The notes beneath the pieces are model-generated. The model was not told where the DNA came from. It saw only the letters and a list, made by a program, of their open reading frames with translations, and searched no databases. Shown piece by piece: positions 3,097 to 34,069 of a DNA stretch of 35,421 bases. Each line of letters begins with the position of its first letter. Position 1 is the first letter of the stretch. Position numbers and translations under genes: made by a program. Origin of the DNA: Candidatus Micrarchaeaceae archaeon (GTDB lineage Archaea > Micrarchaeota > Micrarchaeia > Micrarchaeales > Micrarchaeaceae); NCBI GenBank assembly GCA_050013715.1, contig JBEKES010000005.1, positions 1 through 35,421 of the forward strand, in the 5' to 3' direction.

Positions 3097-3187
3097 TTTA
3101 TCGTAAGTATATTATGAATTTTTAGATATAAATAGGTTCCTACAAATTTACCGTCGATTTGACGTCATATTTTATCTAAAGTACGGG

Positions 3188-3230
3188 ATTGAACACCCAA
3201 CCTTCGACGACAAACTAAATTTGACGTCGA
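3188..3230. repeat. tRNA-Tyr T-arm copy plus inverted repeat
   Basis: attgaacacccaacct 3188-3203 is identical to 3249-3264; IR tcgacgacaaa (3204-3214) / tttgacgtcga (3220-3230), one mismatch. Confidence 0.8.
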
Positions 3231-3234
3231 GAAA

Positions 3235-3334
3235 TCCCGTTGGGGTGAATTGAACACCCAACCTGTCGCTTTCTGGCATTGTGCCATGCATTCCAAACTA
3301 CAGGCGACCGCTCTAGCCATTGAGCTACAACGGG
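3235..3334 (-). tRNA. tRNA-Tyr(GUA) with 27-nt canonical 37/38 intron (3271-3297)
   Basis: Acceptor CCCGTTG/CAACGGG, D-arm GCTC/GAGC, anticodon arm GTCGC-CT-GTA-G^A-GCGAC, T-arm GGGTG-TTCAATT-CACCC. Confidence 0.95.
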
Positions 3335-7144: not shown

Positions 7145-7837
7145 ATGGGGGCTTTGGAATTGCTTAGGTCAGAGCAAAGCCAGTTGTGTTTTGTGACATC
7201 TAATCATAGCAAGGCAGTATCTGCAAATACAACGCTTATGGCATTTGGCTTTCCTGTAGCGCAGCTAAATAGAAAGATAGAGGAACCTTACCACACCAAT
7301 AGTCCAGTAGCCATAGCTACTGAAAAAATAAGGAGAGCAGCAAAACTGCATGATATTCAAATAATATGCTTTGACGGCAGGCAAATAGAAGTAGAAAGGC
7401 TTTCAGAACTTCCAATAATCTGCGAAGATGGAGGATTCTTTGTCAATGCACTTAACGGAAGGCCAGGAGTTCAGATAAATCCATATTTGGAAGAGAAAGG
7501 CGTTGAAGGACTTCTTGAAGAAATGAGAGGCAGGAGCGACAGAAGCGCACATTTCTGGGAAGTACTAGCATATAAAGACCCGCTCATGGAAAAGCCAGAA
7601 TATTTTGAGAGTATAGTACATGGAGTAGTCGCAGATGAGAAAAGAGGCAAAATGCAGGATTTCAACTGGTCTAAGTTGCATTTGGTATTTGTAGCAAATG
7701 GTTACACCAAAACATGGGCAGAAATGAATGCTAGAGAATACAAAGATTACGATTTAAGGGAAAGGTCAAGATGGAATAGACTTGGAGAATTCCTACGCAG
7801 AAGAAGTGAATTGGTTAAACTTAAATCAGTTATGTAG
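7145..7837 (+). CDS. Divergent ITPase/HAM1-fold protein
   Basis: FVTSNHSK and CEDGGFFVNALNGRPGV; lacks the GFGYDPIF and SHR motifs. Confidence 0.8.
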   Translation: MGALELLRSEQSQLCFVTSNHSKAVSANTTLMAFGFPVAQLNRKIEEPYHTNSPVAIATEKIRRAAKLHDIQIICFDGRQIEVERLSELPIICEDGGFFVNALNGRPGVQINPYLEEKGVEGLLEEMRGRSDRSAHFWEVLAYKDPLMEKPEYFESIVHGVVADEKRGKMQDFNWSKLHLVFVANGYTKTWAEMNAREYKDYDLRERSRWNRLGEFLRRRSELVKLKSVM

Positions 7838-9848: not shown

Positions 9849-10496
9849 TCACTTCGAATTACTTGAAGGGCAAATATTCTTGAGCACACATTCATTGCAA
9901 TATTTTGTTCTTGCTGTGCAGGTATCCCTTCCCAATGCAATAAATAAATGAGTTAAATTTCCCCAATCCTTTTCATCAATAATTTTCATTAGTTTCTCTT
10001 CGATTTTCTTGGGATTATTTGTATTAGCAAGTTTTAATCTATTTGCAACAGTAATGCAGTGAGTATCTATTGCTATCCCTTCATTTATGCCGAATGCATT
10101 TGCAAGAACTACATTTGCAGTTTTTCTTCCAACTCCGTCAAGAGTTATAAGTTGGTCTATAGTTTTTGGCACTTGCATGTTGAAGTTTTGCTTGATGGTT
10201 TTTGCTGTTTTAATTATGTTTTTTGATTTACTTTTGTATAATCCTATGCTGCTTATATAAGGATAAAGCTGTTGTGGTTTTAATTTTGAGAAAGAATCTA
10301 TTGTACTGTATTTTCTAAATAGAGGAGCAGTTATTTTGTTAACTTGCTTATCTTGCGATTGCGCAGAAAGCATTGTGGCAACAAGGAGCTCCCAAGGATT
10401 TGAATGGTAAAGTGAAGTATTCATTTCTGATTTGTACCTTTTCTTTAGAAGTTTCAGTATGGTACCGATCTTTTCTTTATCGTTTTTCTTGTTCAT
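9849..10496 (-). CDS. nth: Endonuclease III (HhH-GPD, 4Fe-4S)
   Basis: LSAQSQD, LDGVGRKTAN, IDTH, C-x6-C-x2-C-x5-C. Confidence 0.93.
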   Translation of the reverse strand: MNKKNDKEKIGTILKLLKKRYKSEMNTSLYHSNPWELLVATMLSAQSQDKQVNKITAPLFRKYSTIDSFSKLKPQQLYPYISSIGLYKSKSKNIIKTAKTIKQNFNMQVPKTIDQLITLDGVGRKTANVVLANAFGINEGIAIDTHCITVANRLKLANTNNPKKIEEKLMKIIDEKDWGNLTHLFIALGRDTCTARTKYCNECVLKNICPSSNSK

Positions 10497-11052
10497 TAGA
10501 ATACCATTTGAAAAAAGAGTCGAATGCTTTTGCCCTGTGTGATAATGTGTTTTTTTCTGCTAACCCTATTTCTCCGAAGCTTTTTCCATCATAACCATCT
10601 GGAGAGAATATAGGATCAAAACCGAAACCATGTTTTCCCTTCTCTTCTTGTATTATAGTTCCATGTACTTTTTCTGCAAAAGAGATTAAATTTGAACCAT
10701 CGTAAAAACTGACACAACATTCGAAATAAGCCTTTCTGTCATTTATGCCCCGCATCAACTTCAATAATCCTTTATTACCTATTGTTGGTACTACATATGC
10801 AGAGTATACACCTGGAAAACCATTAAGTGAATTTACAAATAATCCAGAATCATCTACAACTAGCGGTTTCCTGATTTTTCCGTATGCATTAAGCGCGCTG
10901 AATTGTGAAACCTCTTCCAATGAATCGGCTTGTATCTCAAGCTTTTCTGTACCGTTTTTGGGCATTTCTAATCTTATGCCATACTTTTTAGCTATATCAT
11001 TGGCCTCAGCTAACTTTCCGCTGTTGTGTGTAACTAACACTAGAGTCTTCAT
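10477..11052 (-). CDS. rdgB: Non-canonical purine NTP pyrophosphatase (RdgB/HAM1)
   Basis: THNSGK, DDSGL, GFPGVYS, GFGFDPIF, SHR. Confidence 0.93.
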   Translation of the reverse strand: MKTLVLVTHNSGKLAEANDIAKKYGIRLEMPKNGTEKLEIQADSLEEVSQFSALNAYGKIRKPLVVDDSGLFVNSLNGFPGVYSAYVVPTIGNKGLLKLMRGINDRKAYFECCVSFYDGSNLISFAEKVHGTIIQEEKGKHGFGFDPIFSPDGYDGKSFGEIGLAEKNTLSHRAKAFDSFFKWYSNEQEKR

Positions 11053-11108
11053 AAAATCAGATATAGTTATTAGTTAATGATAAATATTTATACTACTATA
11101 TTTGTCAT

Positions 11109-11765
11109 ATGGGGGAAGATAAACTGCTTAGTTCTAAGGAGGCAAATCAATTAGCAGAAAAACTAAGTAGCAAATACAAAGATGCGCATTACTACCTTAA
11201 TTTTAAAACACCAATAGATTTGGTAGTAGCTGCTATACTATCTGCACAGACAAGAGATGAAGTAGTAAATAAGATTACACCTGCTTTGTTTGGCAAATAC
11301 AAGACAGCAAAGGACTATGCAAATGCAGATGTTGATGAATTAGTTGGTTATATAAAAAGCGTAAGCTTTGCTGGCAACAAGGCTAAAAACATAATCAATA
11401 CCTGTAAAGAGATATCCAACAAGTACAATGGCAAAGTGCCCAACAAGATGGAAGAGCTTGAGGAGCTTCCTGGCATTGGAAGAAAAACAGCTAATACAAT
11501 ATTGATAAACGCTTACGGCATAGTGGAAGGCATTCCTGTAGATACGTGGGTGATAAAGCTCTCTTACAGGCTTGGCCTAAGCTTGAATAAGGATCCTGAA
11601 AAGATAGAAAGTGATCTTAAGTCAAAGATACCAAAAGAATACTGGAGCAAGTTTGCATATGTACTCAAGATGCACGGAAAGGCAGTATGCCAGACAATTC
11701 CTTATTGCAGCAAATGCCCAGTAGAAAGTATGTGCCCAAAAAACGGAGTTACAAAGAAATTGTGA
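11109..11765 (+). CDS. nth: Second endonuclease III paralog
   Basis: LSAQTRD, LPGIGRKTAN, VDTW, C-x5-C-x2-C-x5-C. Confidence 0.88.
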   Translation: MGEDKLLSSKEANQLAEKLSSKYKDAHYYLNFKTPIDLVVAAILSAQTRDEVVNKITPALFGKYKTAKDYANADVDELVGYIKSVSFAGNKAKNIINTCKEISNKYNGKVPNKMEELEELPGIGRKTANTILINAYGIVEGIPVDTWVIKLSYRLGLSLNKDPEKIESDLKSKIPKEYWSKFAYVLKMHGKAVCQTIPYCSKCPVESMCPKNGVTKKL

Positions 11766-19101: not shown

Positions 19102-19197
19102 ACGTAGTTTAGAATGCGATACTATTTATCTGTTCCAGATATTAAGATCGTAATCGCCAGTATATGTATTATAAACTAAAATTAAGCACATAGTTTC

Positions 19198-19710
19198 TTA
19201 TGCTTCTTTGCGCAATGTGCTTTCAGTTTGCTGTAATGTACTGGAATCTGTATTTGTATCTACTTTGATACCAACCACAAGTGAAGCAACATCTTCAGGA
19301 TTAAGATTTGCACCAAGGCAAAATCTGTCATTACCATAATCAAAACCACTAAAACTAAAGTACAAATGCCCATTGCCTTTTCTTGTGCTTACGCTTTGAT
19401 ACCATTCAAGAGACCATATACTTTCAATTTTGGCAAGTTCACCTTTTTCATCTATCCTAAATGATTTAGTTTGTTCTAAACCTTCTCCCTCAATCCAGAA
19501 CCATTTTCCCTTCAAAATTTTCCTTAATTCAGGATCTTGTGATAAATGAATAAGTACTTCCTGCTTTGTCATTGCACGATACCCGTTACTAATTAATTCT
19601 CTCATTGAACCTGAAAAATCTTCCTTTTCTTCTAATATGCCTATTGTTTTACCTAGACTTTGTATTTCTCTAAATTGTGCTTTTCTTTCTAGTAAGCTAG
19701 TAGTTGCCAT
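19198..19710 (-). CDS. Hypothetical protein (cassette cargo)
   Basis: 170 aa ORF with GTGATAAA-ATG leader and an upstream TATA-like element. Confidence 0.7.
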   Translation of the reverse strand: MATTSLLERKAQFREIQSLGKTIGILEEKEDFSGSMRELISNGYRAMTKQEVLIHLSQDPELRKILKGKWFWIEGEGLEQTKSFRIDEKGELAKIESIWSLEWYQSVSTRKGNGHLYFSFSGFDYGNDRFCLGANLNPEDVASLVVGIKVDTNTDSSTLQQTESTLRKEA

Positions 19711-19759: not shown

Positions 19760-20332
19760 CTAATTTACAGTTGATTTGTCATCAGATTTTATACCACTAA
19801 CTCTTCTTACGAAATCCATCCAGACACCTAATGGTCTCGCATAAAACAAATCAATAACAGCACCACCTCCCACTCCCAAAAGTGTTTTTTTGATATTTCC
19901 ACTTGTAGCAATTGCAAGTTGGGCTGTATAGATAGCACTCCAGTAAAGCTCAGTTACTGCTATATCTGCAACGAACTTTACACGTTCGCTTGTGTTTTCG
20001 TTTATTTTCATTTTTTTAAAACACCAATCCCTAAATATCCCATAGGGCCTACTTGTGAAAGTACATAACACTAAACCTAATGCTCTTTGTTTAAGTAGCT
20101 CTTTGCCACTTATATGTGCTATAAATAATTCATTTGCTCCAAATACGACAGTACTTAAACTACTAACAGAGAAGGTATCAACAAGAAAATTATAACCTTT
20201 GCTCTTTCTAATTGATGAGTCTTCACTAATTCTAAGCATTGTAAGAAAATCAAAGTTGTTAACCTTCCTAATAAATCCTCTTGATTTTGTTTCTTTATTA
20301 GTACCATTAACTTGTTTAGTTTCTATCTGCAC
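19760..20332 (-). CDS. L-alanine exporter AlaE-like membrane protein (cassette cargo)
   Basis: VDTF...E.F......R......RPYGIFRD...ADI......Y...RPLGVWMDFVRR matches the AlaE/YgaW pattern as I recall it. Confidence 0.72.
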   Translation of the reverse strand: MQIETKQVNGTNKETKSRGFIRKVNNFDFLTMLRISEDSSIRKSKGYNFLVDTFSVSSLSTVVFGANELFIAHISGKELLKQRALGLVLCTFTSRPYGIFRDWCFKKMKINENTSERVKFVADIAVTELYWSAIYTAQLAIATSGNIKKTLLGVGGGAVIDLFYARPLGVWMDFVRRVSGIKSDDKSTVN

Positions 20333-20389: not shown

Positions 20390-20503
20390 GGGATCCGAAC
20401 CCTAATTTCTTAGACGTGTTACTTCGAACCGCCGGGATAGGTCTCATATTCTAAGGTTAAGAGCCTAGTCTTTGTCTTATGATAAGGAATAGGGAATTCC
20501 TAA
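20390..20503. repeat. Cassette junction S3
   Basis: T-arm copy 20390-20409 (18/20 to 24055-24074), core 20430-20440, 38-bp block 20450-20487 identical to 21121-21158. Confidence 0.9.
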
Positions 20504-21027
20504 ACAGAAAATAAAGGTGGTTCATCCAAACCACTAGCCCATTTGAGAAGTTGACTCCTTGCTTTAGCTTCAAATAAAAATGATGGTTGTGATCCTAAGG
20601 TATCAGACCATGTTTGCTTAAATTCAAGTGAATAGTATAATTCTTTTGCACTCATATTTCTTACAATATCTTCCATATCTGGTCTAATCGCTTGTAATGA
20701 TTTTATTATATAACTATGTGCTGCAACATAATTGCCTTCGTAAGCGTATAAAAGTCCAATGCTTTCTAAATCTGAACTTAAATTCAATCTAGCTTCATAG
20801 AAAGGTATGCCAGAACCATCTTTTGCTTGTTTTTTTAGTTCTTTTTTGTCTATGTCTACTGCCCTTTTTAGAGTTCCAATGCTTTTGTCTAGTTTATCTT
20901 TGTCAGTTGAAACAAGCCTGATAAGTAGTTCTCTTGCCTCTTTAAATTTACCTTTTTCTTCCAGGTTTGTTACTTCCCTATCGATTTTTTGAGGATCTAT
21001 TTTAGTGTAGAAATGTTTCGTTGGCAT
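20500..21027 (-). CDS. Hypothetical helical (TPR-like) protein (cassette cargo)
   Basis: 175 aa ORF; SIGLLYAYEGNYVAAHSYIIKSL resembles a TPR. Confidence 0.65.
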   Translation of the reverse strand: MPTKHFYTKIDPQKIDREVTNLEEKGKFKEARELLIRLVSTDKDKLDKSIGTLKRAVDIDKKELKKQAKDGSGIPFYEARLNLSSDLESIGLLYAYEGNYVAAHSYIIKSLQAIRPDMEDIVRNMSAKELYYSLEFKQTWSDTLGSQPSFLFEAKARSQLLKWASGLDEPPLFSV

Positions 21028-21078
21028 TTTTATCTTATAAACTTATGACTAATACCCTTTAATAAGTTTGTTTAGATT

Positions 21079-21173
21079 GGGTTATTAACCTTAAACTATG
21101 CGCCGGGATAGGTATTATACTCTAAGGTTAAGAGCCTAGTCTTTGTCTTATGATAAGGGATAGGGAATACTAA
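21079..21173. repeat. Cassette junction S2
   Basis: Core 21101-21111 flanked by perfect IR ttaacctta (21085-21093) / taaggttaa (21123-21131). Confidence 0.9.
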
Positions 21174-21237
21174 ATCTTTTTAATAAAAGAAGAACTTATT
21201 ACCAAACAATTATATTATATTTATTACATTTAGTATT

Positions 21238-22839
21238 ATGGGTGTAATTATACTTTTTGGAGAGCCAGGATCGGGTAAGTCAACTATAGCTAAGGAGTTA
21301 AGAAAACAAATAAAGAACTCTAAAGTTGTTGAGGCTTCAAATTTAATTTATTCTGTTTCAGTATTTTACCCATATTTACCTAATTCTACTCAAGTATTAC
21401 TACATAAACTCAAAAACCAAAATTTTGAATTAAACAGTGTAAAAACAAATAGAGAAAAAGCCAGAAATATTAATTCAAAGTTACAAAGTAAATATTCAAA
21501 GGATTTTATAGGAAAAGCTTTAGATTACCTTTATATTAGCAATAACAAGGGCACTTTAATCCTTTCTGGAGCTAGAGGCTATGATACTGCAAAATATTTC
21601 AAAAATAAAGGTTATTTTGTAGTTTTTCTGAAAACCAAACACAATATTTTGATAAATAGATTAGCTAAAAAATACAATTATTCGAAAAATATGGCGATAG
21701 AGGAACTTGAAGAAGAAGATAGATTGTATTCGACTCAAAATATAGAGAAAATAGCAGATCTTGTTATAGATACATCTAAAGCTAAACTTGGAGAAACTAC
21801 ACTTAAAATAATAAATGCTATTCCTAAAGAAATAATTGAATGTAAAAGATGTGTTAATACAAATCAAAACCCAACCATAACCTTCAATAAAAATGGTTAT
21901 TGCAATGTATGTGATTCATACTTTAAGAATTACGATAAAAAAGTACTAGCCAATGAACTCAAATTTGTAAAATCTTTTATTGGAAAGGGTAAATACAAAT
22001 GGGATGCTATGGTTGGGGTTTCTGGTGGCAAAGATAGCACAAATACTTTGTATGAAACGTTGAAAATGGGTTTTAAACCACTTGCATTTACATTTGCAAT
22101 AGGTTATTACCCTAGACATATACTACGAAGAGGGCAAAGTATAGCTAAACATTTTGGAGTAGAACATGAAGTAATTGTTGTAAAGAAGTATATGAGAAAA
22201 TGTGATCTTAAATCTTACAAGAAAACTGCTGAATTATATGATAGACCAGAATCAGAAGAACTTAAAAAGAGATTTAGGAATTTGTATATCGAAGGACGTA
22301 GACATTACTCAATAAAATGCAAACATGCATTGCCTTTCGTAAGAACGTGTCAACTTTGTAGACGTTTAGTGATACGCGGCTATTATGCAGAAGCATTAAA
22401 GCATGGAGTTAATTTAGTTATTATAGGTATAAACGAATGGGCAGGTTTTAGTCAACTTTATTCTAAAAATGAATTTAAAATGTCAGGGATCAGAAAACTC
22501 AAACCTTACAAGAATAAACCAGCAGTTTATGTTATTCATTTACCATTTTTATTACAACAAAATTCTAAAAAGGTAGCTAAAGCACTCAAAGAATTAAATT
22601 GGAAATTACCTAGAGGAGAAGAATTAATTGAATCAAATCCAAATTCTTGCTTATTTGCCAGAGCTGCACAATACAAAGCCGCAAGGATGTTAGGATTCAA
22701 TCCAGATACAACTAGACTTGCCAGAGAAGTAACTGTAGGTTTTATAAGCAAAAATCAAGCAAGAAGTGCGTTACAAAAAGTAACAAAATATAGATATTCT
22801 GTTTCTCATGTACTTAAAAAAGCAAAAATAATAATGTAA
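21238..22839 (+). CDS. Fusion of a P-loop NMP/dephospho-CoA-kinase-like domain and a PP-loop N-acetyl-sugar amidotransferase-like domain (cassette cargo)
   Basis: GEPGSGKS; then CKRC, CNVC, SGGKDS, CQLC. Confidence 0.75.
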   Translation: MGVIILFGEPGSGKSTIAKELRKQIKNSKVVEASNLIYSVSVFYPYLPNSTQVLLHKLKNQNFELNSVKTNREKARNINSKLQSKYSKDFIGKALDYLYISNNKGTLILSGARGYDTAKYFKNKGYFVVFLKTKHNILINRLAKKYNYSKNMAIEELEEEDRLYSTQNIEKIADLVIDTSKAKLGETTLKIINAIPKEIIECKRCVNTNQNPTITFNKNGYCNVCDSYFKNYDKKVLANELKFVKSFIGKGKYKWDAMVGVSGGKDSTNTLYETLKMGFKPLAFTFAIGYYPRHILRRGQSIAKHFGVEHEVIVVKKYMRKCDLKSYKKTAELYDRPESEELKKRFRNLYIEGRRHYSIKCKHALPFVRTCQLCRRLVIRGYYAEALKHGVNLVIIGINEWAGFSQLYSKNEFKMSGIRKLKPYKNKPAVYVIHLPFLLQQNSKKVAKALKELNWKLPRGEELIESNPNSCLFARAAQYKAARMLGFNPDTTRLAREVTVGFISKNQARSALQKVTKYRYSVSHVLKKAKIIM

Positions 22840-22893
22840 TCAAATTTTTATTTATTGATTCCACAAATTTGTAATTAGATTAATTCGAAAATA

Positions 22894-22925
22894 GGATATG
22901 AACCTTAAATCTATCGCCGGGATAG
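22894..22925. repeat. Cassette junction S1
   Basis: ggatatgaaccttaa (13/15 to the tRNA T-arm) followed by core cgccgggatag 22915-22925. Confidence 0.85.
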
Positions 22926-23070
22926 AGCGGTAGTACCAGAGGGGCTATGTCTCATAAGTTTAGACATAGTATTACCATATTTAATAAGAAGCCATATTTT
23001 GTATCAATTCACAATGCATATGACTTAATGTACAAACGTATCTTGAAAATAAAAATATGTAAATTCTTAA

Positions 23071-23970
23071 TTATTTTCTTAAACTCATTTTCCATATATT
23101 CATTCTTTTTGTTGCTTCATCAACTTCTCTTATTTTATCTGGATCAGTAAATAGTTTTCTTGTAGAAGATAAATCAGAAACAAGCTCGCCCATAGAGTAT
23201 ATTTCATAAACAAATCCTAACCGTGTAAAGAATTCGTGGCTTTCTTCACGATCTGTAAAGTAAAAAGATTCTAAATCTCTACTGAACTTTCTAGTCCAAT
23301 TCTTTTTTTGTTCTTCTGATCTGGCTCCCAGCTTATTCCATTCTGCCATCTCCTCTTTATGATGAATATCTGGTGTGATGTAGAATCCACCATATTTCTC
23401 TAAAAGCATCTTTGCATTTATAGCTATTTTTTCTTTTGTTGGATGTGGATAATAAGTATAAAGTCCCTCATGAACGACAGCTATTGGAGCATGTATGCTT
23501 AAGTTTTGTGTAATGTTTTCAAATCCTTCGCCCGAAATTGCATCAAATCCAACAAAAGCAGGCATTCTACCTTGCTTAGTTAAAAGCTTCTTTGCATAGC
23601 ACCACATCTGTTCTAATGCTTCTGGATCTTGATCAGTATGCACGAAATTCCATTGTGGATTAATTATGCCCCTTAATGATCTGCCTGCTGCAAATTCAAC
23701 AACCTGATCAACTCCACTTGATTTTATCAATGTATCAATCGCTTTGTAGCGTGCCTCAAACCAAGGAATTCTTGTTTCTATGTTGCCCATTATGGCTTTG
23801 TCTTGCTCATATGCTTCTTCTGCTCTAATTAATTTAGCAAATTCCGCAGCTAAAGGGATATCAGAAAAACTCCTAAAATAAGTAGTATATAAGTTTGTAT
23901 TTTGAACTACTTTTGAAGGTTTTTCAATTTCTGCAGATGCGGTACTCTGTTTATTATTTGATATATTCAT
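23071..23970 (-). CDS. Class I SAM-dependent methyltransferase-like protein (LCM/COG3315-like; cassette cargo)
   Basis: FEARYKAID, QVVEFAAG, HTD, VHEGLYTY. Confidence 0.7.
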   Translation of the reverse strand: MNISNNKQSTASAEIEKPSKVVQNTNLYTTYFRSFSDIPLAAEFAKLIRAEEAYEQDKAIMGNIETRIPWFEARYKAIDTLIKSSGVDQVVEFAAGRSLRGIINPQWNFVHTDQDPEALEQMWCYAKKLLTKQGRMPAFVGFDAISGEGFENITQNLSIHAPIAVVHEGLYTYYPHPTKEKIAINAKMLLEKYGGFYITPDIHHKEEMAEWNKLGARSEEQKKNWTRKFSRDLESFYFTDREESHEFFTRLGFVYEIYSMGELVSDLSSTRKLFTDPDKIREVDEATKRMNIWKMSLRK

Positions 23971-24044
23971 TTTACCACATTTAAATTTGCTTTATTAGAT
24001 ATTTATACCTTGCGTAGGCTTTTACAGTCGATTTGTCGTCGGAC

Positions 24045-24141
24045 CGCCGGGATAGGGATTTGAACCCTAATTTCCTTGCGGAAACCAGATCTCGAGTTTC
24101 GCCTATTTATCTGGCGCGTTACCGGATTCCGCCATCCCGGC
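24045..24141 (-). tRNA. tRNA-Ser(CGA) with 13-nt non-canonical 30/31 intron (24098-24110)
   Basis: GCCGGGA/TCCCGGC-G, long variable arm TTTCC-GCAA-GGAAA, spliced arm CCAGA-CT-CGA-GA-TCTGG; BHB helix CGCC/GGCG with AGA and AAA bulges. Confidence 0.92.
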
Positions 24142-24204
24142 ATGTGTAACACTTAAATATGAGTGATTAATAATACTTTAAATGTATAGATAATTCGTGA
24201 ATAA

Positions 24205-28063: not shown

Positions 28064-28176
28064 TGGACTCTGCGTACCTCTCACATCACGTAGGAATTAA
28101 CTTATGGTATAAAATGACATACTTTGATACCTTTTGATATATTCTATTGAAAGATACTTATAAATATTTCCTGAAA
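28064..28176 (+). repeat. Core plus conserved cassette left end (copy 1) containing a TATA box
   Basis: Aligns with 29838-29953; ttataaata at 28158. Confidence 0.92.
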
Positions 28177-28197
28177 CATATTATTTTGAGTGAGAAA

Positions 28198-28755
28198 ATG
28201 GCAACAACAAAACCTATATTCGAAAAAGATATACCAGTAGGTGCAAGCGTTATAATGCGAAAATATCCTAGAAATAGTGATGACATGGCGACTTATGTTT
28301 TCGGGACGTATTTTGATGATTTGAGAGCTGTTCGTGTGCTATACAGAAAAAATGAACATATTATTAATTTTGCAATAGAACCTGAGGATCACGAAAAATA
28401 CTTTCCAGGAGTAGTTCTTGAAGCAGATACACGCCATCCGAAAATAATATTAGCAAAATCAGCTGGTGTTGGTTCATTTAATCATGATTCATCTCAGGGT
28501 TCATTATATATTTCAGCACATCAGCTAATGTTTCATTTTCCTAAGAATGATTCACCAGTAGTCCAACTAGTTGATTTCTTAAGAAGCCTGCAAGATCGAC
28601 AGATAGATCAACTTCAAAGTGAACATACTCTACAGCAACAGGCAGGGCTGGCATTAAATCTAAAAATAGTTAGTACTTTGATAAATTTTGTATCGAGTGA
28701 AGTAGAAACACATCAAAAAGACACTATTAGTTTAATTAAAAGAGAAGTTGAGTAG
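28198..28755 (+). CDS. Hypothetical protein (cassette cargo)
   Basis: ATG 28198 (MATTKP) preferred, because TTG 28147 lies inside the repeated end, upstream of the TATA box. Confidence 0.7.
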   Translation: MATTKPIFEKDIPVGASVIMRKYPRNSDDMATYVFGTYFDDLRAVRVLYRKNEHIINFAIEPEDHEKYFPGVVLEADTRHPKIILAKSAGVGSFNHDSSQGSLYISAHQLMFHFPKNDSPVVQLVDFLRSLQDRQIDQLQSEHTLQQQAGLALNLKIVSTLINFVSSEVETHQKDTISLIKREVE

Positions 28756-28787
28756 CTAAGATTTCTTGTTTTTTCTTATTTGCATCC

Positions 28788-28833
28788 ATCCCACCCTGAT
28801 TCTCGAGGTGACACATCGAAACTGGACTCTGCG
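28788..28833 (+). repeat. Conserved cassette right end plus core (copy 1)
   Basis: 28788-28822 matches 30498-30532 at 27/35, followed by tggactctgcg. Confidence 0.88.
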
Positions 28834-29045
28834 TTCTTAGGGCTTTTGTTTCTGATTCTAATCCTACATTAAAATAGCATAACTTCGGAATAATATACAC
28901 TACTATTAATAAAAATAGTACAGTGGGCTTTGTAGGAAAACTCTGACTTTTCCAACAAAATAATTAGTTTTCCGACAAGTTGCAGTTCTATACGAAATAG
29001 AATAAATGTTCTTATATTATGAACAATAAAATGATATTGATAAAA

Positions 29046-29567
29046 ATGGTAGTAACTAAGCCAAACCCCCGTAAAATTTTAATAACTGGACTACCAGGAA
29101 GCGGAAAAAGTAGGTTGCATAAATTCCTTCAAAGTAAAGGATACAATTCTGTAGATGCTGATGATACATTTTTATCATATAATGGAAAGAAATTACCTGT
29201 TGGTGCAAGTATGAAGTGGCTCTTACAAAATCCACCAATGTGGAATGAAGAGAAACTTGGTGCCATTTTTGAAAAGAATAAAGACAAAGACTTATATGTA
29301 GTTGGAGTAGCACCAAATATGTTAAAATTCCTCAAGCATTTTGATGAGGTATATTATCTTGATGCAGATAGAGAAACACTAACATATAGGCTAAAAGCAC
29401 AAAGAAGTAACCCCTACGGAACTACAAAAGCTCAGAGAAGATTAGCAATATTAACCCTGCCTGTTGCAGTCATTGCATCAAAAATTGCAGGATTCAAATT
29501 CGTTGATGCATCTTTACCAACAGAACAAATATTCAATAAAATTTCAAACTCTAACGAAAATGCCTGA
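29046..29567 (+). CDS. P-loop kinase (shikimate/adenylate-kinase-like; cassette cargo)
   Basis: ITGLPGSGKS, VDAD, FDEVYYLDA....L..RL..R.SNPYG. Confidence 0.78.
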   Translation: MVVTKPNPRKILITGLPGSGKSRLHKFLQSKGYNSVDADDTFLSYNGKKLPVGASMKWLLQNPPMWNEEKLGAIFEKNKDKDLYVVGVAPNMLKFLKHFDEVYYLDADRETLTYRLKAQRSNPYGTTKAQRRLAILTLPVAVIASKIAGFKFVDASLPTEQIFNKISNSNENA

Positions 29568-29837
29568 ATACTTATTAAACTTTCTTACTTAATGCTTTAG
29601 AGAATGAAGTATTCATTTCTTCTACATCAGAATAGAATAGTGTAGCTATGGTGATAGTAATCATTACCGATGCAAAAAAGAGATATGTTTCAACGTCAGC
29701 ACCACAATATGTTCAAATTGCTTCAATAGATATAAAAGCTCCATAACAGATAAACCGAACTTAAAGTACAATAGACTTAAAGTCCATTTTGACGAGTTTT
29801 TGATGAGTTTGTCGTCTAATAAATGTGACCTAGTTTC

Positions 29838-29953
29838 TGGACTCTGCGTACTTCTCACATCACGTAGGAATTAACTTATGACATAATTTGATATACGTTG
29901 ATACCTTTTGATATCACCTGAATTTGAAAGATATCTATAAATATTTCCTGAAA
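29838..29953 (+). repeat. Core plus conserved cassette left end (copy 2)
   Basis: First 43 nt differ from 28064-28106 at one position; both end in tataaatatttcctgaaa. Confidence 0.92.
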
Positions 29954-29966
29954 GAGAATATGTTGA

Positions 29967-30431
29967 GTGATATGTTTGCCAGAAAAAGAAGTTCCTCAAA
30001 AAGCTAGACACGAGATATTGTTTAGTTCTAGATATAAAGAGACGGCCTTTTTATCAAATTTTTACCCATGCGTAATAAATATAGATGGTAAGACATATGC
30101 TAGTGTAGAGCATTATTATCAAAGTCAAAAAACTTTAGACCCAACATTAAGTGAATGGATGAGAAATGCACCTTCTGCACTTTATGTAAAGAAACTTACA
30201 GAAGTTTTGAGACGTAAAGATGTAAGAACTGACTGGCAAGAGGTCAAAGTAGGAATCATGAGAAGAGCAATACGTGCTAAGTTTACTCAAAACGAAAATC
30301 TAAAAAAGAAATTACTCGATACTGGTGATGCTGTATTGCATGAAGATGTTCCTGATGAACTATTTTGGGGAATGGCAGGACAGGATATGCTTGGCAAAAT
30401 GTTAATGGAATTAAGAGAAGAACTAAGATAA
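29967..30431 (+). CDS. NADAR (YbiA-like) family protein (cassette cargo)
   Basis: FLSNFY, SVEHYYQSQK, R.DW...K..IM..AI.AKFTQ, LLDTG, FWG, G.DMLGKMLMELREEL. Confidence 0.9.
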   Translation: MICLPEKEVPQKARHEILFSSRYKETAFLSNFYPCVINIDGKTYASVEHYYQSQKTLDPTLSEWMRNAPSALYVKKLTEVLRRKDVRTDWQEVKVGIMRRAIRAKFTQNENLKKKLLDTGDAVLHEDVPDELFWGMAGQDMLGKMLMELREELR

Positions 30432-30532
30432 ATTTAATATTTTTCTCAAAATCTTTTTCTTTAATTTTCATAAAATATTTACCTTTTAAAAGAGAGAATC
30501 GCACCCCAACTCTCGAGGTGTAACGTCGGAAC

Positions 30533-30643
30533 TGGACTCTGCGGGGATCGCACCCGCGACCTTCCGCTTTTTTGGGTTTACTTTTGATTAATTTTCAAAA
30601 GTTTACTTGCAAAGCGGACGCTCTACTACTGAGCCAAGAGCCC
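30533..30643 (-). tRNA. tRNA-Ala(UGC) with 39-nt canonical intron (30569-30607)
   Basis: GGGCTCT/AGAGTCC with G3:U70, TCCGC-TT-TGC-A^A-GCGGA, T-loop TGCGATC; intron hairpin ACTTTTGA/TCAAAAGT. Confidence 0.93.
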
Positions 30644-30676
30644 ATATAAGTAGAATGATATTTCACATTAAGATTA

Positions 30677-31737: not shown

Positions 31738-31791
31738 CTCATCACAAAGTAAATTCTTTATTCTAAATATTTATGTGTTTTGTATGGAACC

Positions 31792-31874
31792 CTAATTTTT
31801 TAAGAGAAGGTTTATTTTTGTTGGGACTTCTGCATTTTCTATAATTTCAGAATCAACAAGTAGACAACTTTTAT
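31792..31874 (-). pseudogene. 3' remnant of a paralog of the 33343-33807 gene
   Basis: Encodes VDSEIIENAEVPTKINLLLKN* versus VDSEIIGNAEDITEITLLLRP*; no ATG start. Confidence 0.75.
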
Positions 31875-31933
31875 AGAAAAAGAGGTATTTAGGCAATGAT
31901 TATAAAAGATAGTTTCTTACTATATAAGATCGA

Positions 31934-33280
31934 ATGTACGGAAAAACTATTTACTTGCAAGGAATGCAGTCCATTATTGGCAGCGGTGCAACCTCCGAGG
32001 CAGTAACACCGCCCAAGATAGAAGGGCTTATACGGCTTGGAACACGTAGATTAAGACTTATGAATGTGGATGGCAATACACTCCAATCCATTGCTGCCGA
32101 CGGGACCCAAACCCTGCAGTGGCCAGTAACTTTGACCTATCCGCTTAAGCTATGCAAACAGAATCATTGGATTCCTCATATAATTATTGGCAACGTTGTA
32201 CCTGCCGCGCTGGCAAAAGTTGATGCCTCTGGCAGAAAGTACGGTCCAACTTCCTGGGATTCTTATGACAAGTACATCAATGCGTTCATTAAATATGTAG
32301 TCGTTGATCAGGGTTTTGCAGAAACGGAATGGGAAGTTGGCAATGAGATGAATAGTGCATCAGAAAACTGGGCAGCTGATGAGAAGCCAAAAGCAACTAC
32401 AGATGAATACGGATTCAATGCCTATGCGGTTCTGTATTCGCATATAGCAAAAGATATTGATGAATTTAGACATCAGAATCCTAATGTGCATATTCGGGTA
32501 GGAGGACCCGCAGAAGGTTATAACAACCAGGTTGCACCGCCATTAGATTGGACAACACGTTTTGTCCGCTACAATGCAGCTAACAATATGCCCATGGATT
32601 TCGTAAGCTTTCATACATATGGCAATAGCGTTACCAGTGCAACGCTTGGCAATTTAATTGGTGAGATACGTAAAGAACTAGTGAATGTAAACAGCGCCGC
32701 AAGCATCTTCATTACCGAATGGGGCCCTAGCTACGAGGCCACTCCGGGATTGAACTATGAACCAATTTCTGGTGCATTCGCACTGGATTTTGTTGCCAAG
32801 ATGGCATTGTTTGGCGTGCATGATACAATCTTTCTTTCGCTTTCAAAGTTTCCCACATTGGAATGGCCTGCACTGTACAAGCTTGACGGCTCGCCATCGC
32901 ACATAATGCTTGCATTGCTAAGTATTATGGACCTTAAAGGTGCAGCAGTGCCTTGCGTTGGCACAGATGGTGCATCTGGCGTAGCAGTAAAAGATGCAAA
33001 TGGCAATATTGACGTTGTTTTCTGGAATTTTAATTGGGAAACGGATAAATTCCCGACAGTTATGCCTGCAAAAGGTGAAAGTACGCATACATTTGTTATG
33101 ACAGAAGCTAATGGAAATTGGACTGGTAATTATGATTTGGTTGAAGCAAAACTGAACTCTGAATCATGGGAGATAAATGCCCAATCTCCTTTTGCAAATT
33201 GCAAAGGATCAGAATTAACTTTTTCATTGGTTCTGCCCTATGGAAGTTACGGTTACCTGCAACTCACTCCGCACGTTTAG
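31934..33280 (+). CDS. Clan GH-A glycoside hydrolase, GH39-like
   Basis: WEVGNE (acid/base), RVGGPA, DFVSFHTY, FITEWG (nucleophile), C-terminal beta-rich domain. Confidence 0.78.
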   Translation: MYGKTIYLQGMQSIIGSGATSEAVTPPKIEGLIRLGTRRLRLMNVDGNTLQSIAADGTQTLQWPVTLTYPLKLCKQNHWIPHIIIGNVVPAALAKVDASGRKYGPTSWDSYDKYINAFIKYVVVDQGFAETEWEVGNEMNSASENWAADEKPKATTDEYGFNAYAVLYSHIAKDIDEFRHQNPNVHIRVGGPAEGYNNQVAPPLDWTTRFVRYNAANNMPMDFVSFHTYGNSVTSATLGNLIGEIRKELVNVNSAASIFITEWGPSYEATPGLNYEPISGAFALDFVAKMALFGVHDTIFLSLSKFPTLEWPALYKLDGSPSHIMLALLSIMDLKGAAVPCVGTDGASGVAVKDANGNIDVVFWNFNWETDKFPTVMPAKGESTHTFVMTEANGNWTGNYDLVEAKLNSESWEINAQSPFANCKGSELTFSLVLPYGSYGYLQLTPHV

Positions 33281-33342
33281 AAAATTATTTGCAATTATAT
33301 ATTTTATGCCCATCTAATGTATCCTGTGTTTTGTATATGTTA

Positions 33343-33807
33343 CTATGGCCTTAAGAGAAGAGTTATTTCCGTAATATCTTCTGCATTTCCTATAATTTCA
33401 GAATCAACATGGAATGCCCTTATCAGTTGTTCTGCAAATTCTGCACCATCACGAACACCAGAATTAAAGTATTTAACAAGCTCGAAAATTGCTGCATTTG
33501 TCTTCTCTCCATTTACAGTATAATTTTCCAAAATCTCTCTCCCATGCTCAATTAATGCAGGTGAGACGCAGCCCTCCTTAATGAATAGTTCTTTGAATGC
33601 TAATACCGCAAGATCTTGTATATGAGTATCGTCCTGTTTCAAAAATTTTCCTATTTTTGCAGCTTTAAGATGTTCTCCTTTACGCAAGCAGTCTTTCTGA
33701 TGTTCTCTAAGTTCCTCTAACTTTAACTCTCTAGTACTTCCTAAGTATGCTTTTAAATTAGGCGAATCGCGTTCAATTGCTTTTGCCTTAAGTGAATTTT
33801 TTACCAT
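33343..33807 (-). CDS. Hypothetical protein
   Basis: 154 aa ORF, GTGGTAAG-ATG leader, TTTATATA upstream. Confidence 0.7.
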   Translation of the reverse strand: MVKNSLKAKAIERDSPNLKAYLGSTRELKLEELREHQKDCLRKGEHLKAAKIGKFLKQDDTHIQDLAVLAFKELFIKEGCVSPALIEHGREILENYTVNGEKTNAAIFELVKYFNSGVRDGAEFAEQLIRAFHVDSEIIGNAEDITEITLLLRP

Positions 33808-34069
33808 CTTACCACAAGAGAATTGAGCATTTGGTAATATATAAACTTTTACCTCAAAAAAAGCAGAATGTATATATACCTTTGGAAGTAAACTAATAAA
33901 CGGTGCTATTATGGCAGCAAGAGCAATCTAGAGGCTCCTGTATTTAGAAAGCTTATTTTTGAATTGGCTTGATGAAAATACTTAAATGAGAGCTAATGCT
34001 CTGTGTTGCGTATAATGCTGATGATGTCGTGAATTTTCGCGATTGATTATAGGAGAAGAAGCTTGCATA

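Follow-up and report, generated by a model that had tools for sequence, protein, structure and literature searches.

Two tandem one-gene units of 671 and 1,814 bp, both bounded by exact copies of tRNA nucleotides 63-73, stand behind the tRNA-Ser(CGA) gene in the analyzed window (35,421 bp of contig JBEKES010000005.1), and the analysis confirmed that they are tRNA-anchored, integrase-free cassettes with a common end type, as the initial annotation had supposed. These units (units 2 and 3, counted from the tRNA outward) are probably non-autonomous, CIME-like mini-elements, accreted in tandem and moved by a visiting XerA-like tyrosine integrase of ~400 amino acids.

The source organism is an ultra-small peat archaeon with a genome of 977 kb (assembly 92.9% complete); the parts of the array are listed in Table 1. 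The tRNA-Ser(CGA) gene, which has a 13-nt intron, is the target site (attB/attL), its nt 63-73 corresponding to 24055-24045. The 11-mer CGCCGGGATAG has four copies in the genome, all of them in the Ser array (20430, 21101, 22915 and 24045); the copy at 24045 is the tRNA's own 3' end. Three end types are mixed in the array: besides the shared ends of units 2 and 3, unit 1 ends in a tandem GACGACAAATC motif at 24023-24040 with a TATA-like box, and the outermost segment opens with a third arm type and a T-arm copy at 20390-20429. Left of 20430 this segment has no intact distal core, the best candidate (19155-19165) having three mismatches. The GC content of unit 2 is 28.9%, versus 38-40% in the flanking core genes. 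The Rfam scan returned two tRNAs and nothing else, low-threshold ARAGORN calls were regarded as noise, and a Sigma-70 promoter and terminator scan gave no signal above shuffles. An ARAGORN 'Cys' call at 30532-30644 was rejected in favor of Ala(UGC) on the basis of the anticodon loop and of the G3-U70 pair, the identity rule of tRNA-Ala.

Table 1. Features of the tRNA-Ser(CGA) array and of the neighboring Ala array (window coordinates)
Feature	Position	Strand	Description
Eroded accessory segment	18874..20429	-	older, without intact distal core
170-aa ORF	19198-19710		in eroded segment
AlaE-like ORF	19760-20332		in eroded segment
Core copy, most distal intact one	20430..20440	-	tRNA nt 63-73
Unit 3	20441..21100	no strand	671-bp spacing
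Unit 3 P arm (left end)	20441..20497	-	shared block
Unit 3 cargo	20500..21027	-	175-aa TPR-like helical protein
attP-like junction	21078..21138	no strand	imperfect inverted repeat and perfect 9-bp inverted repeat
Core copy, units 2/3 boundary	21101..21111	-	tRNA nt 63-73
Unit 2	21112..22914	no strand	1,814-bp spacing
Unit 2 P arm (left end)	21112..21168	-	shared block
10-mer equal to tRNA 24049-24058	21157..21166	+	exact match
Unit 2 cargo	21238..22839	+	533 aa, NMP-kinase-like P-loop domain fused to WbuX/QueC-like PP-loop domain
Unit 2 P' arm (right end)	22888..22914	-	inverted counterpart of unit 2 P arm
Core copy, units 1/2 boundary	22915..22925	-	tRNA nt 63-73
Unit 1	22926..24044	-	tRNA-proximal, 1,130-bp spacing, end type unlike units 2/3
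Unit 1 cargo	23071..23970	-	299 aa, LCM-like class I SAM-dependent methyltransferase
tRNA-Ser(CGA)	about 24044-24142	-	ARAGORN intron mode; Rfam RF00005, 46.6 bits
Ala context array, three units	28064..30643	-	adjoins tRNA-Ala(UGC), non-IR end types

The core repeats are not a product of chance, since there were 17 exact core 10-mers downstream of tRNA genes (at 9 of the 22 tRNAs scored; ten others without a T-arm regex match were rescanned separately) versus none upstream and none in reversed orientation. Identity with the tRNA begins at nt 63 in 13 of 30 core copies and at nt 62 in 10. Contigs from three other runs (X3, X4 and X5) span junctions 20430, 21101 and 22915 with zero mismatches among the 32 of 151 pieces listed, 20430 being bridged by X3 and 22915 by all three, so that the junctions are not an assembly artefact; the Ser junctions are also bridged in another assembly, whose source sample is possibly shared. 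In X3-X5, contigs of another organism join 28074 to 30533 in the Ala array (again among 32 of 151 pieces listed).

The left ends of units 2 and 3 match at 94% over 68 nt, including 38 identical bases (20450-20487 versus 21121-21158), the right ends as originally quoted agree at 14 of 21 positions, each unit holds the one gene ascribed to it, and the 9-bp inverted repeat (21085-21093/21123-21131) is perfect. The additional tRNA-like 10-mer at 21157 is likewise present; its counterpart in unit 3 has one mismatch, at other tRNAs the homologous arms show no match to their own tRNA at that place, and its function is not established. Both units also differ in their ends from the tRNA-Ala(UGC) array, as had been noted. 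The further proposal of tRNA-specific cassette families did not hold: the left-end motif occurs at five places in the genome, at three of which it adjoins the core of Thr(CGU), Asp or Arg(GCG), and the Ser and Thr left ends are identical at 39 of 55 positions in register. In relatives, the end type tracks the integrase clade and not the tRNA. More generally, the 30 nt next to the core contain a positional motif common to different tRNAs, detected at p<0.05 in 34 of 44 units by leave-one-tRNA-out scoring (His-array cores are one base off register, which only lowers the His scores); units 2 and 3 scored 8.0 and 8.7 (background 99th percentile 4.85), and the motif is also found beside the core in 6 of 8 integrase islands. 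Beside Asp, Thr and Arg the Ser-type left end is accompanied by a right end of non-IR type, which gives many units a chimeric look. None of 400 other phylum genomes and no viral contig contained the exact left-end pattern, and ten metagenomic matches comprised five by chance and five from the same organism, with no genuine foreign contig. The tallies over 400 phylum genomes and over 110 and 128 relatives include the unpublished genome G003, on which no claim solely depends, and genomes counted among the relatives are not independent.

The expectation that the junction at 21101 would equal the attP of this family was borne out in its architecture: it has an 18/27 inverted repeat centred on 21108, corresponding to tRNA nt 66 (0 of 1000 shuffles reach 18), and of 101 nt only 3 differ between it and the attP rebuilt for the 671-bp unit. 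The perfect 9-bp repeat is the centre of this imperfect repeat of ~27 bp symmetric about nt 66. The rebuilt attP of unit 3 gives 20/27 with its peak at nt 66 (0 of 1000 shuffles), and that of unit 2 gives 15/27 with the same peak (p 0.006). Tyrosine integrases have symmetric binding sites that flank an overlap of 6-8 bp; judging from the symmetry centre and from the place where tRNA identity ends, the overlap here may be the 7 bp of tRNA nt 63-69 (21105-21111). Most other units lack the symmetry (pairing 30% versus 25%, permutation p 0.034). Core variants at nt 70 and 73, in Thr and in two Arg copies that precede similar arms, fit 3' bases supplied by the element.

In line with the initial description of cargo in either orientation, 28 units genome-wide have their largest ORF directed away from the tRNA and 15 toward it, one unit being ORF-less. 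Units 2 and 3 contain a single cargo ORF each and no recombinase domain. The 533-aa protein shares ~50% identity with proteins assigned by name to Patescibacteria and Woesearchaeota and was absent from the 128 family relatives searched. The 175-aa protein gave Pfam TPR_7 at E 1e-4, below the cut-off, and ESM Atlas TPR clusters at 0.95, and the 299-aa protein of unit 1, without a match in the Pfam search, resembled PF04072 clusters in ESM Atlas features (0.96) and TM score (0.85). Genome-wide, the cargo includes PIN/ParE toxin-antitoxin pairs, methyltransferases, HD, NADAR and many unknowns, and homologues of the cargo of other units are located within integrase islands of the relatives G004, G005 and G009.

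Searches with PF00589, PF00239, PF16795 and two custom profiles revealed no tyrosine integrase, resolvase or SSV1-type integrase in the assembly, the sole recombinase-profile match (C33) being the zinc ribbon of an unrelated 179-aa protein. Relatives, by contrast, harbor tRNA islands of 5-24 kb encoding a tyrosine integrase of ~400 aa with PF00589, SAM and C-terminal zinc ribbon domains, whose nearest PDB structures are archaeal XerA-like (4a8e, 5hxy). Wherever the far end of a long-integrase island was mapped (15 islands), the core is 11-13 bp, equal in length to that of the Ser units, and 10 of the 15 have an IR-type symmetric attP; in the first eight, symmetric pairing about nt 66 was 58% versus a mean of 25% over centres. 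The right end of unit 3 matches the attL arm of the G424 integrase island (L218) at 15 of 17 positions in register. In the integrase tree, obtained by a quick search with 20 of 35 rows unlabelled, IR and non-IR ends are separated by one change (0 of 500 shuffles; split support 81), and the IR clade spans six tRNA types. Among the relatives, no autonomous island with Ser-unit arms was found at tRNA-Ser(CGA), nor any parent element with the exact Ser-unit arms or cargo. None of the 17 relative loci has a core repeat in the Ser-truD interval, and in G005, G006 and G010 this interval is empty. The long integrase also occurs at 27 loci in viral contigs (best identity 38-39%), with no tRNA in the five best of the 27 and no link shown. 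Integrases of ~310 aa, whose frame overlaps the tRNA, were set aside as helpers of units 2 and 3 since the fragments at the ends of their islands are longer and contain the T-arm; these islands have the tandem arm motif of unit 1. A likeness by eye between the arms of the G005 Arg island and the first Arg unit (15 of 33 in register) was not used.

Taken as a mechanism, a unit would consist of a single cargo gene flanked by the P and P' arms of an att site. The zinc-ribbon tyrosine integrase would bind the ~27-bp imperfect inverted repeat and exchange strands across tRNA nt 63-69, and the incoming unit, presumably a circle, would restore nt 70-73. Each new unit would enter at the tRNA and displace older ones outward, and such entry would generate P-core-P' junctions like that at 21101. 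The units themselves may have arisen by internal deletion of larger islands. Because the assembly lacks an integrase, we infer which enzyme meets these sites.

Genome-wide, 44 tightly fitting units totaling 43.7 kb (~4.5% of the ~1-Mb genome) occur at 16 tRNA loci, with a median size of 801 bp and up to 13 units in one row, and this abundance speaks for a dedicated integron-like system. In such a system the units would not be decay products of large islands but would form and be traded as one-gene circles with interchangeable arms and their own promoters, the integrase being host-resident on an unassembled contig or routinely supplied by a virus or plasmid. We regard this as possible, if doubtful, and hold equally tentative its general form, gene capture at tRNA ends across the genome through one-gene mini-circles with double-stranded att arms, promoters and trans-acting zinc-ribbon integrases that read arm geometry and not tRNA identity. 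In its favor, the cargo types resemble those of integrons, one arm motif has 17 copies here versus at most three in any of 110 relatives, a promoter-start module has 21 matches genome-wide, no unit contains integrase remnants, and similar small units exist in seven relatives (G004, G005, G007, G010, G080, G100 and G303). However, the circles for which a search had been suggested did not appear, neither circle nor excision joint being seen for the Ser units in four runs, which are possibly from one site and were available as contigs (depth about <=5) that hide rare forms. Moreover, no identical unit occupies two sites and only three cargo pairs are paralogous (31-36%), and the ends are diverse and match those of autonomous islands, as decay predicts. 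Recognition of attC-like single-strand hairpins was not supported, the arms beside the cores showing no folding advantage over shuffled sequence (mean z -0.58; 5 of 44 below -2 versus 3 of 44 control windows).

That the units are fixed relics, left by past islands and now immobile, is likewise possible, if doubtful. Junction sequences identical across runs from several samples, the assembly without integrase and the lost core of the outermost segment would agree with it, yet those runs may share one site and their contigs miss rare forms, while the exact cores, the closely matching arms of units 2 and 3 around unrelated cargo, and an intact, low-GC 533-aa gene absent from the relatives argue against it. 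Casposon insertion at a tRNA is on record, the hallmarks being a Cas1-like casposase, terminal inverted repeats and target duplication. It is nevertheless very improbable that a transposase or casposase aimed at tRNA 3' ends produced the 11-bp repeats as target-site duplications: one arm family beside different tRNA cores and the uniform repeat length fit such an origin, but the symmetry, whose centre falls within the core, emerges only once both ends are brought together around that core, terminal inverted repeats are missing next to the ends, the autonomous counterparts encode tyrosine integrases, and the variants at nt 70/73 suit element-supplied bases. Finally, a MITE, tandem duplication or assembly artefact, suggested by the 38-bp identical block recurring 671 bp apart, is effectively refuted by the five of five motif copies that abut tRNA cores, the sub-terminal, core-centred inverted repeat, the unrelated cargo and the bridged junctions (sample possibly shared).

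The mini-element reading can be compared with known systems. Cis-mobilizable elements (CIMEs), described together with the tandem accretion of ICESt1/ICESt3-type islands, have lost integration and transfer genes but kept attL and attR, and stand in tandem at a gene 3' end with chimeric internal att sites (PMC5704250). Each Ser unit similarly has an exact 11-bp core and an arm at either end and lacks integration or transfer genes, but the units belong to an archaeon, have one-gene size (median 0.8 kb) and are part of a set at 16 tRNA loci; no array of the assembly has an integrase-bearing neighbor, so mobilisation would need trans action and not the cis action of an adjacent autonomous element. 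In the relatives G004, G005, G007, G010 and G100, integrase islands do adjoin small units. Islander defines islands by a displaced 3' tRNA fragment at the island end, a crossover at the T-stem/acceptor junction (J/T-stem subsite) and a tyrosine integrase, which it requires for each island, and records four tandems of at least three among 3,919 islands and at most 19 islands per genome (PMC4383910). Like J-subsite islands, the Ser units have a 3' tRNA fragment displaced downstream of the gene in direct orientation, and the repeat centred on nt 66 would fit the 7-bp overlap; unlike the Islander islands described, the 44 units here are integrase-free, with a run of 13. Dehalococcoides ssrA islands lie head-to-tail, split by a short repeat of the RNA-gene end, and 15 of them, without an integration module, were proposed as CIMEs (PMC3146451), but this account concerns one locus, a 20-bp repeat, a serine integrase module and multi-kb islands. 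SNJ2-type integrases use a 14-bp core at the tRNA 3' end, and related ones cross-complement excision in trans (PMC5861418), the step that Ser-unit mobility would require; in the SNJ2 subgroups described the integrase is coupled to its target tRNA, whereas here one arm type and one integrase clade span several tRNAs. An SNJ2-type system further comprises Orf2/Orf3 accessory genes. Integrons and CALINs, archaeal ones included, form arrays of short one-gene units with toxin-antitoxin and unknown cargo, integrase-free surroundings and possible cross-domain cargo (PMC9668308). The units here differ in being bounded by tRNA ends and not attC hairpins, in mixed orientation and many parallel arrays, and in a genome with neither IntI nor any PF00589 match. 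Prochlorococcus tycheposons integrate successively into tRNA genes, displacing older elements and leaving partial tRNAs; they carry an integrase and often replication genes, have att sites of ~40 nt and leave remnants without clear borders (bioRxiv 10.1101/2020.12.28.424599), unlike the Ser units with their exact cores.

These units would escape island finders that depend on an integrase or a long tRNA fragment. A candidate enzyme family, the geometry of its binding site and tRNA nt 63-69 as the probable crossover window emerge from the analysis and make mobility directly testable, and a compact integrase clade serving many tRNAs through an 11-bp core is a possible tool for archaeal genome engineering. 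Reduced DPANN archaea have many orphan genes, and precisely bounded one-gene units bear on how these organisms gain genes. If the genome-wide form of capture were true, gene capture at tRNA ends would be a main gene-sampling route of this ultra-small archaeon, including for genes held in common with CPR bacteria.

The last 11 bases of tRNA-Ser(CGA) (nt 63-73, the core) occur four times in the genome (976,605 bp in 72 contigs, completeness 92.9%), all in the window, contig C5, at 24045, 22915, 21101 and 20430, where they bound units of 1,130, 1,814 and 671 bp, here numbered 1 to 3 from the tRNA outwards. The default scan misses the tRNA, which both ARAGORN in intron mode and Rfam recover. The initial annotation had described a shared left end and similar right ends for units 2 and 3, and both are real, the left ends being 94% identical over 68 nt, including 38 identical bases, and the right ends agreeing at 14 of 21 positions; its ORFs, 9-bp inverted repeat (IR) and tRNA-like 10-mer were likewise recovered, and the arrangement as a whole proved more extensive than it had stated. 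Contigs of metagenome runs X3, X4 and X5, possibly from one sampling campaign, span the junctions 20430, 21101 and 22915 with no mismatches (among the matches listed, 32 of 151 pieces). The runs holding the stretch are mostly peat metagenomes, and the genes of the window are archaeal. No downstream core repeat was found in relatives at any of the 17 loci with the tRNA located (20 fetched), and the distance from the tRNA to the end of truD, 5.2 kb in the source genome, is at most about 70 nt in relatives G005, G006 and G010.

Among the 22 tRNAs scored genome-wide, core 10-mers recurred 17 times downstream and never upstream or reversed, and later scans added arrays. The resulting catalogue comprises 44 units at 16 tRNA loci (median 801 bp, range 362-3,696 bp, sum 43.7 kb), one of which, Thr(GGU), was inferred from the core because the tRNA itself lies off the contig. 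The 13 units at Arg(GCG) extend over two contigs, C29 and C6, joined in another assembly. Since further junction candidates lie on other contigs (a Glu core with motif score 10.4 and a Phe core with 6.6), 44 units is a lower bound. The tRNA-His heading a five-unit array is interrupted in its T-loop region, and an intact T-loop in the DNA is therefore unnecessary for targeting. Two Arg cores, both ahead of similar arms, have A rather than G at nt 73, which suggests that the discriminator base is supplied by the unit itself. Other species and genera likewise hold small units that lack an integrase and have 11-14-bp cores, and these often lie behind an integrase island. Coordinates, including those of other features of the window, are collected in the table.

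Locations of tRNA genes, arrays, motifs and neighbouring genes (C, contigs of the source genome; L, loci; G, genomes of relatives)
Feature	Location	Strand	Remarks
tRNA-Ser(CGA), 13-nt intron	window 24045-24141	minus	ARAGORN in intron mode and Rfam
Arg(GCG) array, ~13 kb	C29:10382-11757 and C6:66-11724 (L087, L086, L082)		several end types
Five-unit tRNA-His array	C17:10692-15700 (L088)		tRNA missed by ARAGORN
Glu and Phe junction candidates	C28:10591-11303 (Glu), C35:5674 (Phe)		
Arg cores with A at nt 73	C6:6298, C6:11025		
Small units of relatives	L230 (G100), L139 (G004), L163 and L164 (G005), L136 (G007), L147 (G010), L170 (G080), L171 (G303)		
Short ~310-aa integrase family of relatives	L056, L057, L058, L059, L066, L069, L070		frame into tRNA, no upstream start
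Tandem 11-bp motif	window 24023-24040, 19766-19783		
T-arm copy	window 20390-20409		
TATA-like box, spacer and start-codon module	window 28147-28210, 29924-29970		
tRNA-Tyr	window 3147-3247		arm motifs and T-arm copy downstream, no core before contig end
GH39-like gene, 448 aa	window 31934-33280		59-nt repeat on either side (31800, 33351; 83% identical), the one at 33351 overlapping a 154-aa ORF end; region 31790-33810
Segment resembling Ser T-arm	window 31787-31802		
Endonuclease III-like genes	window 9849-10496, 11109-11765		flank an ITPase-like gene; region 9849-11765
Second Ham1-family gene	window 7145-7837		

The 533-aa protein of unit 2 is a fusion of a kinase and a WbuX/QueC-like PP-loop protein, which shares about 50% identity with proteins named from Patescibacteria and Woesearchaeota and had no match at E 1e-30 in 128 family relatives; the GC content of this unit is 28.9%, against 38-40% in flanking core genes. 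The 175-aa protein of unit 3 is TPR-like. Genome-wide, the cargo includes PIN and ParE toxin-antitoxin-like pairs, methyltransferases, HD, NADAR, hydrolases, ankyrins and many unknowns; an IS-type DDE transposase is present in one catalogued unit, and a site-specific recombinase in none of the 44. As first noted for the Ser units, cargo lies in either orientation: in 28 units the largest ORF points away from the tRNA, in 15 it faces the tRNA, and one unit has no ORF.

The ends of the units do not support the earlier reading of tRNA-specific cassette families: the left-end motif occurs at five genome sites, two at Ser and one each at Arg(GCG), Thr(CGU) and Asp cores, and the Ser and Thr left ends are identical at 39 of 55 positions in register. 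The Asp/Arg form recurs, diverged, at the ends of small units in G004 (Asp, 26-27/33) and in G005 (Arg, 24-25/33), and three end types coexist within the Ser array, namely tandem-motif (unit 1), IR (units 2 and 3) and T-arm-copy (left of 20430). In a clustering of the arms, that is, the left (P) and right (P') unit ends beside the core, 51 of the 75 proximal links and 16 of the 28 distal ones connect different tRNAs. The 30 nt flanking the core share a positional motif, which beat shuffles in 34 of 44 units (p < 0.05, own tRNA left out), the two IR-type Ser units scoring 8.0 and 8.7 against a background 99th percentile of 4.85; among the 13 small units from relatives, only 8 score on it. The exact left-end pattern was absent from 400 other genomes of the phylum, viral contigs and foreign metagenome contigs, and its Asp, Thr and Arg copies are paired with non-IR right ends.

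The 11-bp motif GACGACAAATC, which is found in tandem, has 17 copies in the source genome and one to three in 30 of 110 relatives, where it follows tRNAs in 9 of 29 matches and overlaps a short integrase frame in three; elsewhere it often precedes a TATA-like box. It may serve as a site in the arm or as one for a regulator. Some proximal arms, also at the Tyr, Glu and Ala loci, carry a T-arm copy of their own tRNA 25-60 nt past the core, a layout seen in relatives too, after both non-IR long integrases and short ones. The module of TATA-like box, spacer and start codon (21 BLAST matches on 16 contigs) precedes unrelated accessory genes, several of which encode MAT(T/Q)-like peptides at the start of their ORFs.

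No tyrosine integrase, resolvase or SSV1-type integrase was found in this 92.9%-complete assembly. PF00589 matches occur in 22 of 40 relatives, and default ARAGORN detects a tRNA at 20 of 30 such loci. These tyrosine integrases are of two kinds, short (~310 aa) and long (~395-435 aa). The short frames run into the tRNA, as in split SSV1-type integrases, with island ends that are longer fragments including the T-arm. The long integrases combine PF00589 with a SAM domain and a C-terminal zinc ribbon (nearest solved structures archaeal XerA-like 4a8e and 5hxy), mostly begin 60-115 nt past the tRNA and are found in 32 of 128 family genomes. All 15 of their islands with a mapped far end (5-24 kb) end in a cassette-like core of 11-13 bp, and an exact repeat is absent at three further islands (L233, L235, L238) despite more than 16 kb of flank. 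The three annotated islands encode nucleases, an AAA protein, LemA and unknowns, with no virion or conjugation genes recognised. No autonomous island was found at tRNA-Ser(CGA) among the relatives examined; in G424, a 401-aa integrase at tRNA-Thr has an attL arm that agrees with the right end of unit 3 at 15 of 17 positions in register. In a quick-search tree of 35 long integrases (20 rows unlabelled), a single change, with support 81, parts ends with an IR centred on tRNA nt 66 from those lacking it (0/500 shuffles). Members of the main IR clade (support 99) target Thr, Arg, His, Asn, Asp and Cys tRNAs, so that end families follow the integrase clade and not the tRNA.

Joined around the core, the ends of the islands form an imperfect IR roughly 25 bp long, with its centre at tRNA nt 66. 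Pairing about this centre was 58% in the first eight islands, six of which show the IR, versus a mean of 25% over other centres, and reached 14-17 of 27 pairs in four of seven later islands. The rebuilt ends of units 3 and 2 pair at 20/27 (0/1000 shuffles) and 15/27 (p 0.006) positions, respectively, with nt 66 as the best centre for both, and junction 21101 scores 18/27. The 9-bp IR noted earlier sits 12-20 bp either side of the 7-bp window 21105-21111 (nt 63-69), and in 23 of the 30 copies identity to the tRNA starts at nt 63 or nt 62. The standard tyrosine-recombinase layout places a 6-8-bp overlap between inverted binding sites. Judged from sequence, the repeat centred on nt 66 would identify the mechanism as tyrosine-recombinase exchange across nt 63-69; Islander recognises a subsite where the T-stem meets the acceptor (PMC4383910). 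The symmetry is missing from most other units (30% vs 25%, permutation p 0.034), many of which may be chimeric or served by a non-IR integrase clade. In line with the suggestion that 21101 should equal the attP of the family, it differs from the rebuilt attP of unit 3 at only 3 of 101 positions.

We consider it likely that the units are non-autonomous and are moved in trans by a long integrase, a model built on the observed boundaries, shared arms, symmetry centre, matching autonomous islands and empty sites in relatives. The integrase would arrive on an island, plasmid or virus, or lie on unassembled DNA, and would excise and integrate the units as circles, exchanging strands across nt 63-69. 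New units would enter at the tRNA end, which would make unit 3 older than unit 2, and 21101 would be a chimeric P-core-P' site. Cross-complementation in trans has been demonstrated for SNJ2-type integrases with 14-bp tRNA cores (PMC5861418). Derivation of the units from larger islands by internal deletion is plausible, because cargo homologues of other units sit inside integrase islands of G004, G005 and G009; no deletion intermediate between islands and small units was found. A purpose-built cassette system, which overlaps partly with the trans-mobilization model and differs from it in origin and present activity, is a less likely reading. Fixed relics, related to that model in the same way, are a similarly tentative reading. 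Neither circles nor skip joints appeared for the Ser units, but the contigs searched had a depth of about 5 or less, and such contigs lose rare forms. The sole joint at any core, 28074 to 30533 in the Ala array, is on contigs of a different, related organism and is consistent with an empty Ala site there.

The arrays work like cis-mobilizable elements (CIMEs) with tandem accretion (PMC5704250), the ssrA islands of Dehalococcoides (PMC3146451) and tycheposon-built islands (10.1101/2020.12.28.424599). Two CIME features apply and cis-mobilization fails in this assembly, and the units are therefore named CIME-like. An integron is ruled out by the absence of attC-like folding, the mixed orientation and the lack of IntI (cf. 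PMC9668308). Among its 3,919 islands, Islander lists four tandems with three or more members, and no genome there exceeds 19 islands (PMC4383910). No report of such arrays in this lineage was found in the openly accessible literature. The principle is already known; what is new, as far as this literature search reaches, is the scale, the one-gene size, the lack of a resident integrase and the link to a specific integrase clade with a defined crossover. The 13-unit Arg(GCG) array is the best locus to test cassette turnover.
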